The notes beneath the pieces are model-generated. The model saw nothing but the letters and a program-made list of their open reading frames with translations. It was not told where the DNA came from and did not search any database. A stretch of 64,000 bases of DNA from Escherichia coli (GTDB lineage Bacteria > Pseudomonadota > Gammaproteobacteria > Enterobacterales > Enterobacteriaceae). The stretch's first letter is position 1, and the number at the start of each line of letters is the position of its first letter. The DNA is taken from assembly GCF_030013595.1 (NCBI RefSeq), contig NZ_CP122768.1; one strand, 5' to 3'. This document shows, in pieces, positions 1 to 318 of this stretch. A program made the position numbers and the translations under genes.

Positions 1-291
1 GAATATACCAGGCAGGTATTAAAGCCTCATTCAGCAGTACGTTAAGCGGACATCTCGGGGTGGGGTATAGCCATGGTGCCGGTGTGGAATCCCCGTGGAA
101 CGCGGTGGCTGGTGCGAACTGGTCGTTCTGACCATCAACGAAAAAGCCCACATCTGTGGGCTTTCATATCACCAAGAGCCGCGGCTCCTTTGCGTATCCT
201 TTTATGTCTCCTCACCGTCTGGTCGGTGTCTTGCTGAGACTTCTAACTTCCTGTTTTTGTTGGTGTTGTCCTTGCACCGTCCAATCATGAT

Positions 292-318
292 TGGTGGAGC
301 TGGCGGGAGTTGAACCCG
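292..318. repeat. att core, left copy (displaced copy of ssrA 3' end)
   Basis: tggtggagctggcgggagttgaacccg identical to 43396..43422. Confidence 0.8.

Follow-up and report, generated by a model that had tools for sequence, protein, structure and literature searches.

The window analysed here, that is the whole 64-kb stretch of E. coli DNA, contains an intact copy of ssrA, which is a well-known integration hotspot, and a prophage of about 43 kb. From the first position on, the main elements of the locus are the following:

1-131, plus strand: 3' end of ypjA (autotransporter adhesin), convergent with ssrA
281-294, no strand: perfect 14-bp palindrome CCAATCATGATTGG, characterised by sequence reading, copy search and shuffles
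292-318, minus strand: distal att core, a pseudo-ssrA fragment (27-bp copy of the tmRNA 3' end), like psaA in K-12
319-43395, no strand: phiP27-like prophage in ssrA, about 43 kb, lying between the core copies
387-1649, minus strand: prophage integrase, frame broken at an A-run, 59% identical to the Int of phage LLS
43240-43395, minus strand: the prophage's own arm and terminator (hairpin at about 43248-43271), which the intact ssrA now has as its trailer
43396-43758, minus strand: intact tmRNA gene ssrA, tag ANDENYALAA (ARAGORN), the last 27 bases being the proximal att core

Both att cores are copies of a 27-bp direct repeat, TGGTGGAGCTGGCGGGAGTTGAACCCG, which is present exactly twice, at 292-318 and 43396-43422. 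This repeat corresponds to the tmRNA 3' end in reverse complement, comprising the T-arm from its second base, the 3' strand of the acceptor stem and ACCA, and thus the tgg (292-294) that is common to the palindrome and the core represents the CCA terminus.

The integrase gene sits at the distal end of the prophage and is frameshifted. Its 420-aa ORF aligns to LLS Int (59%) up to ...ADAIRKK, while the catalytic C-terminus (RHTFAT...HYGSY) is found in another frame, in an ORF at 451-906, which places the break near the A-run at about 664-670. The break may reflect a genuine inactivation, by which the prophage would be locked in place, or else an error in sequencing the homopolymer. The prophage has an integrase and att module that differ from those of phiP27, the Stx2e phage, and it carries a tRNA-Gly(tcc) at 17443-17517. 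Since no toxin ORFs (stx was sought) were found between this tRNA gene and the holin/endolysin genes at 18203-19306, it looks like an stx-negative phiP27 relative.

Sequence and chance level of the palindrome

The original prediction described a perfect 14-bp palindrome that overlaps the first bases of the att core on the host-flank side, and this description is confirmed in both respects: ccaatcatgattgg, at window positions 281-294, equals its own reverse complement over all 14 bp, and its tgg (292-294) opens the 27-bp repeat. Read on the minus strand, i.e. in ssrA sense, CCAATCATGATTGG is composed of CCA, with which the duplicated tmRNA fragment ends, a 9-nt spacer, ATCATGATT, and the GG that opens the first GGAC motif. 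The overlap with the identity block 292-318 amounts to only three of its 14 bp, at the 3' extreme of the block, and the inverted repeat around a 7-nt loop that is found within this block is the T-arm, GCGGG-TTCAACT-CCCGC.

The palindrome is statistically ordinary. There are three perfect palindromes of at least 14 bp in the window, compared with 4.28 ± 1.95 in 100 dinucleotide-style shuffles of it, i.e. the count is at chance level. Besides the one at 281-294, these are the 14-bp TTTACGTACGTAAA at 15580-15593, inside the prophage, and the 16-bp ATCTATTGCAATAGAT at 47437-47452, on the host side. Neither a second copy of CCAATCATGATTGG nor an inverted partner, as expected for the terminal inverted repeats of an IS or MITE, was present in the 64 kb when up to two mismatches were allowed. 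The palindrome also does not have the features of a Rho-independent terminator, as its A/T-rich stem is followed by GGACGG and not by a T run.

A conserved module downstream of ssrA

The palindrome forms the ssrA-proximal end of a conserved module of about 155 nt, in which we distinguished the following features:

138-294, minus strand: the conserved module, native ssrA 3' trailer and terminator at empty sites, homologous to the P' arm of LLS-type attP
142-165, minus strand: G+C-rich terminator-like hairpin (from folding) with A-tract and T-tract flanks, between the convergent ssrA and ypjA
176-187, no strand: second perfect palindrome, GAGCCGCGGCTC, its symmetry kept via a double change in other alleles
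213-228, minus strand: inverted repeat H3 (CACCG-ACCAGA-CGGTG), within the 11-nt-phased RGAC run
262-278, minus strand: inverted repeat H1 (GGTGC..AAGGACA..ACACC), with compensatory stem changes among arms and a conserved GGAC in the loop

Starting from CCA, the module comprises an A/T-rich spacer of 9 nt, then GGACRG-N5-GGACA and AAAAACAG, followed by RGAC motifs in a run. Next come either a palindrome or a tandem pair of 11-nt units (AAANNNNACGY), and finally the terminator. The RGAC motifs are phased at 11 nt, and across the family the spacer between the core and the first arm-type-like repeats is fixed at 9 nt. H1 and H3 show compensatory changes among arm variants, e.g. GGTGT/ACACC, AGTGAT/ATCACT and AGTGC/GCACT, and the phage-type arm has its CACYG unit one 11-nt step earlier; these inverted repeats could be either protein sites or nucleic-acid structure.

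The second palindrome, GAGCCGCGGCTC, is located just upstream (in ssrA sense) of the terminator. The E. coli alleles MS1170 and Eco-15 have GAGTCGCGACTC in its place, a symmetric double change that keeps the palindrome, and phage-type arms have TGCACGTGCA at nearly the same position. GAGCCGCGGCTC, unlike CCAATCATGATTGG, behaves as though its symmetry were selected. The hairpin at 142-165 is seen in the RNA fold and was not flagged by a simple terminator scan, because the maximal stem absorbs part of the T run. An Rfam scan of window positions 1-700 (E ≤ 10) returned no family for the trailer, its sole match being a tmRNA fragment at 292-337, below the gathering score.

Conservation at empty ssrA sites had been proposed as a check on the palindrome, and it is indeed present there rather than being absent from all related att sites. 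E. coli genomes with an empty site carry ATCATGATTGG directly after ssrA and are 100% identical over window positions 1-318; at least 20 of the best-matching complete E. coli genomes join ssrA directly to the flank in this way, with the palindrome immediately 3' of the tmRNA CCA. A 52-nt query centred on the palindrome was matched with at least 80% coverage in 3,494 of 5,426 E. coli genomes, usually with an annotated ssrA beneath the match. K-12 carries ccgccagcccaccaATCATGATTGGacggtgtaagg after the pseudo-ssrA psaA, at the end of CP4-57 that is remote from ssrA, with the same terminator and ypjA beyond it, and its intact ssrA has a CP4-57-derived trailer without the palindrome.

The module is also found in phages. 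The attP of the isolated Escherichia phage LLS (PQ299149), which is annotated as 'tmRNA pseudogene' and adjoins xis and int, contains an ssrA fragment, an identical CCAATCATGATTGG and the whole module, with 88.8% identity to window positions 135-320 over 96%. The LLS Int has a PF12167 Arm-DNA-bind_2 domain and is 59% identical to the Int of the window. The prophage's own arm (43240-43395) is homologous to 138-291 and has a non-palindromic spacer, CTTTTGACA; its alignment to the flank shows homology far past the core, with motif positions and the distance to the terminator being equal. Citrobacter phage phiNP has a closely related module, again with a non-palindromic spacer, CTTTAGACA. Phage Ayreon (MF807953; locus L244, 2490-2610) contains a degenerate arm, ..TGATTGGGCGGTGTACAACAC..GAGCCGCGGCTCC, that adjoins an integrase unrelated to LLS Int and looks like the leftover of an att-module swap; as it has no ssrA core and an unrelated integrase, it is uninformative on function.

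When the ssrA 3' end was searched in one-genome-per-species contigs and in IMG/VR, more than 30 sequence clusters of the module were recovered from Enterobacterales genomes and viral contigs. The identical 14-mer occurs in Escherichia, Lelliottia, Mangrovibacter and phage LLS, with the remaining module diverged to 79-91%. This distribution bears on the simplest explanation, namely that the palindrome arose by pure chance in neutral intergenic DNA and is conserved since E. coli is a young species. The palindrome count at chance level and a spacer that is no better conserved than its surroundings (see below) are in line with this explanation, but the 14-mer has remained identical across these genera and LLS despite the divergence of the module, and the surrounding DNA is not neutral, given its conserved motifs, phasing and terminator. 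We regard pure chance as very improbable.

The sequences beyond the module are informative about its boundary. At prophage loci outside E. coli the module follows ssrA and is 85-91% identical to the E. coli flank, and among related prophages the 155-nt similarity ends exactly after the terminator. The prophage genes past the module encode EcoRII restriction-modification or GmrSD cargo, a serine invertase, a tail-collar fibre and a Mu Gp48-like protein. In prophages with the palindrome-type module beside ssrA, the slot after the terminator is occupied by defence genes, at L193/L225 (about 230-2960 nt after CCA), L204 (about 1925-3874) and L214, its content varying between EcoRII endonuclease plus C5 methylase in some and GmrSD in another, with an invertible tail-fibre region after it. 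K-12 has a parallel order of module, ypjA and pinH (L002, 23147-28305), and the pinH pseudogene is 85% identical to the prophage invertases. E. coli Eco-15 (L250, NZ_CP047710, 1233538-1234583) has a minimal locus of ssrA, module and glaH, without ypjA, pinH, ypjB and ypjC, which implies that the K-12-type block on the ypjA side, between ssrA and glaH, is accessory.

Other trailers at ssrA are of different origin. The CCA-AATAAAACAAGGGGTTACG trailer, which is found at distal copies in several genera, was considered as an ancestral chromosomal terminator and rejected, as a search identified it as the ogr/D end of P2-like prophages. Serratia-type trailers (L108, L113, L039, L029), which are of the P4/CP4-57 kind and belong to an unrelated family, read CCA-AATCATGATCCGG, CTTCATGATCCGG and CATTATGATCCGG; they begin with ATCATGAT-like strings, and therefore a TCATGA-like centre is not unique to the LLS-type module.

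Variation of the palindrome and its possible functions

The availability of many arm variants allowed us to assess whether the symmetry itself is maintained. When 35 arm types were compared, compensatory changes numbered 0, 1 and 0 at the three inner stem pairs, and pairing was lost in 17, 16 and 14 of the types, respectively. The outer CC..GG pairs are fixed, because CCA and the GGAC motif are constrained separately. The other inverted repeats of the module (H1, H3 and GAGCCGCGGCTC) do show double changes among the arm types. In addition, RNAalifold found no consensus helix at the palindrome among the 35 arm types and recovered only part of the terminator.

Symmetry is also broken without compensation in several natural variants, i.e. 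in E. albertii (CCAATCGTGATTGG), in the arm variant L172 (CCAATAATGATTGG) and in an E. coli allele, CCAAATAATGATTGG, which lies beside an annotated ssrA at the otherwise empty minimal ssrA-module-glaH locus. The latter allele was found in all three genomes sampled from an identity band that comprises 652 of 3,640 E. coli records. Furthermore, two element types occur beside flanks both with and without the palindrome.

Within the close chromosomal/LLS-type subfamily, conservation was 0.87 for the spacer, against 0.89 elsewhere in the module. The 14-mer hardly varies here (29-31 of 32 distinct sequences), and the substitutions fall mostly at positions 6-9, the would-be hairpin loop. The change of A10 to G in Rosenbergiella is compatible with a G-U wobble, and in L229 one pair is changed on both sides so that pairing is kept.

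Palindromes anchored at the tmRNA CCA are found in other trailers as well. Vibrio ssrA trailers contain a 12-bp perfect palindrome, CCAAACGTTTGG, which is invariant in 12 species while the next terminator hairpin varies freely, and three Vibrio genomes have CCAATCGATTGG, which differs by a symmetric double change (Vibrio loci L011, L025, L026, L028, L035, L038, L044, L057, L062, L084, L088, L091, L095, L101 and L109). An arm subtype of Xenorhabdus/Proteus has CCAAATTTGG. Two to three of 58 trailer clusters in the gammaproteobacterial sample have such a palindrome, versus 0.17 expected (P ~0.013, the clusters not being fully independent). This enrichment was not repeated in an independent metagenome sample of 119 tmRNA/tRNA trailers (1 versus 0.47 expected, P = 0.38; for stems of at least 4, 4 versus 3.3 expected), and we rejected the idea that tmRNA/tRNA trailers generally have CCA-anchored palindromes. 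The palindromes follow no general rule and at most a lineage-specific one.

One possible function is that of an RNA hairpin in the pre-tmRNA trailer. Pairing of CCAAU with AUUGG would hide the CCA and modulate 3' maturation or protect the end, the proposed route being RNase E cleavage followed by RNase T/PH trimming, in transcripts from empty sites or LLS-type lysogens. The hairpin is present in both the MFE and the centroid fold of the trailer, the subfamily variants are mostly in the loop or G-U compatible, and similar palindromes at the CCA turn up repeatedly in ssrA trailers of gammaproteobacteria, among them the conserved ones of Vibrio. RNase E is also known to act on the tmRNA precursor, for which PMC11347164 cites Lin-Chao et al. 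(1999). However, at -2.0 kcal/mol (z-score -0.66) the hairpin does not surpass those of shuffled sequences, many arm types of the module are unable to form it, and ssrA has no palindrome 3' of it in K-12 or in any other-trailer lysogen. The broken Eco-15-type allele, with its identity band of 652 of 3,640 E. coli records, the Vibrio compensatory change, which at positions 5/8 lies in the would-be loop, and the unenriched independent trailers argue against the hairpin as well. Overall, we consider this function unlikely.

The original prediction suggested that the palindrome could be a protein-binding site relevant to recombination. It might be a site for a dimeric protein, either a core-proximal accessory site of the P' arm, comparable in position to the IHF site H' of the lambda attP, or, with integrases whose crossover takes place at the very 3' end of ssrA, part of B'. 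Its location between the core and the first arm-type-like repeats, with a fixed 9-nt spacing across the family, and its presence in a real phage attP (LLS) would fit such a role, and so would the conserved arms around a variable centre that subfamily members have and the double change at 5/8 in Vibrio, which keeps the DNA symmetry. Against it, arms of the same Int family have unrelated asymmetric spacers (CTTTTGACA in the window, CTTTAGACA in phiNP), and the two element types mentioned above occur beside flanks with and without the palindrome. Apart from CCA, the palindrome lies outside the 27-bp identity block; a core-type site of the tyrosine integrase would be expected within this block and to be conserved within the same integrase family, and neither is the case. 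The IHF consensus WATCAANNNNTTR is unmatched, with AATCATGATTGGT missing position 6 and all of TTR, there is a single copy in the window, and half-sites would have to be spaced differently in a 12-bp than in a 14-bp palindrome. With only three of the 14 bp in the identity block, non-palindromic arms in the same Int family and inner pairs that are mostly uncompensated, the suggestion is not supported, and we think that such a site is very unlikely.

Origin of the ssrA flank and comparison with known systems

We believe, with a probability of roughly 0.7, that CCAATCATGATTGG is a by-product without dedicated function, located in a phage-type arm that was fossilised at ssrA. It would result from two separately constrained elements 8 bases apart, the tmRNA CCA end and the TGG that opens the first GGAC, with the 8 intervening bases, ATCATGAT, being self-complementary by happenstance in one arm lineage. 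Phages of the LLS integrase family would carry the module of about 155 nt in attP just downstream of the ssrA 3' fragment, and on integration the module would take over as 3' trailer and terminator of ssrA. One copy of the module would have become permanent in the E. coli chromosome, where it forms the spacer between ssrA and ypjA and is most likely the end left by a prophage that has decayed, and later elements, e.g. the 43-kb prophage described here, would have inserted between ssrA and the fixed copy, so that the module now abuts the distal core.

This by-product reading builds on the homology and distribution of the module, the missing covariation and the natural broken variants, all of which we observed. 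The flank directly adjoins the ssrA 3' copy and shares homology with an isolated phage's attP arm, and among related prophages the similarity ends at the module boundary, with phage genes beyond. Sequence comparison further points to an integrase with a predicted arm-binding domain and to 11-nt-phased repeats, the GGAC repeats being the putative integrase-binding sites. Given the arm homology, the sharp end and the K-12 gene order, we read 138-294 as the surviving ssrA-proximal end of an older prophage belonging to this family, which the chromosome would now use as ssrA trailer and terminator. The possibility, raised in the original prediction, that the palindrome is a remnant of another element's end is thereby supported: the LLS attP arm is 88.8% identical and has the same palindrome, and the prophage arm and the more than 30 variants are homologous. 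The module probably moved from phage to chromosome and not in the reverse direction, since the arm seems to diverge in step with the integrase (59% identity for Int and, by eye, about half of the arm identical outside the core). The spacer's only role would be that of an A/U-rich pre-tmRNA stretch that is trimmed off.

Some observations do not fit easily with a palindrome lacking dedicated function. The 14-mer is nearly invariant within the chromosomal/LLS-type subfamily, most substitutions there are in the would-be loop, one being wobble compatible and one both-sided change preserving pairing, and CCA-anchored palindromes recur in Vibrio and Xenorhabdus/Proteus trailers (P ~0.013). It is conceivable, if highly doubtful, that the module is also a structured RNA, parked promoterless at attP and expressed from the strong ssrA promoter only after integration, in which the CCA hairpin would be the first helix and set the cutting of the trailer. 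The compensatory changes in H1, H3 and GAGCCGCGGCTC, the bounded terminator and the CCA-anchored palindromes of Vibrio and enterobacteria may leave some room for it, and if it were true, E. coli with an empty site would make the module constitutively as the ssrA 3' trailer.

The palindrome itself matters little, and the useful result is the annotation of the ssrA flank. What is taken as the 'native host flank' of E. coli ssrA is the same kind of sequence as an LLS-type attachment arm or replacement trailer-terminator. On a practical matter, homology of the module should be allowed for when att boundaries are defined, "empty site" references are chosen and islands are called at ssrA; with an LLS-type phage in an empty site, for example, the direct repeat would appear much longer than 27 bp. 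The gene order suggests that, in K-12, ypjA stands at the cargo position and the pinH pseudogene at the invertase position of a prophage that has decayed. A full-text literature search on the ssrA/ypjA attB returned nothing on this flank. More generally, successive integrations at the tmRNA gene reportedly push older element ends away from ssrA, a view associated with Williams and the 2003 'Traffic at the tmRNA gene', and each element is said to bring its own copy of the gene 3' end and its own downstream sequence.

The module is a phage attachment arm or fossil prophage end, i.e. of a known kind and not a new system. The closest chromosomal counterpart is attR of CP4-57 in K-12 (psaA, the ypjF-ypjA spacer), which has the same chromosomal sequence as the flank of the window. 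However, CP4-57 is a P4-type island with a degenerate, shorter core, whereas the element in the window is a phiP27-like phage whose 27-bp core is exact. The LLS copy of the module is located in a free phage genome with phage genes next to it, whereas that of the window is chromosomal with ypjA next to it, and the LLS attP carries the palindrome whereas the prophage of the window uses a diverged arm without the palindrome.

With respect to processing, the 11 bases past CCA (in ssrA sense) correspond to the start of the trailer and are A/U-rich, as in the tRNA/tmRNA 3' trailers that are removed by RNase E and exonucleases, with the difference that published processing work used K-12, whose trailer is CP4-57-derived. 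In lambda-type attP, the P' arm combines an IHF H' site with the tandem arm-type Int sites P'1-P'3. The module would resemble this arrangement in its core, A/T-rich spacer and phased direct repeats and in an integrase with an N-terminal arm-binding domain, but there is no sequence relationship and its spacer is off the IHF consensus. By analogy, the module may work like a lambda-type P' arm that in addition provides a replacement trailer and terminator for its target gene.
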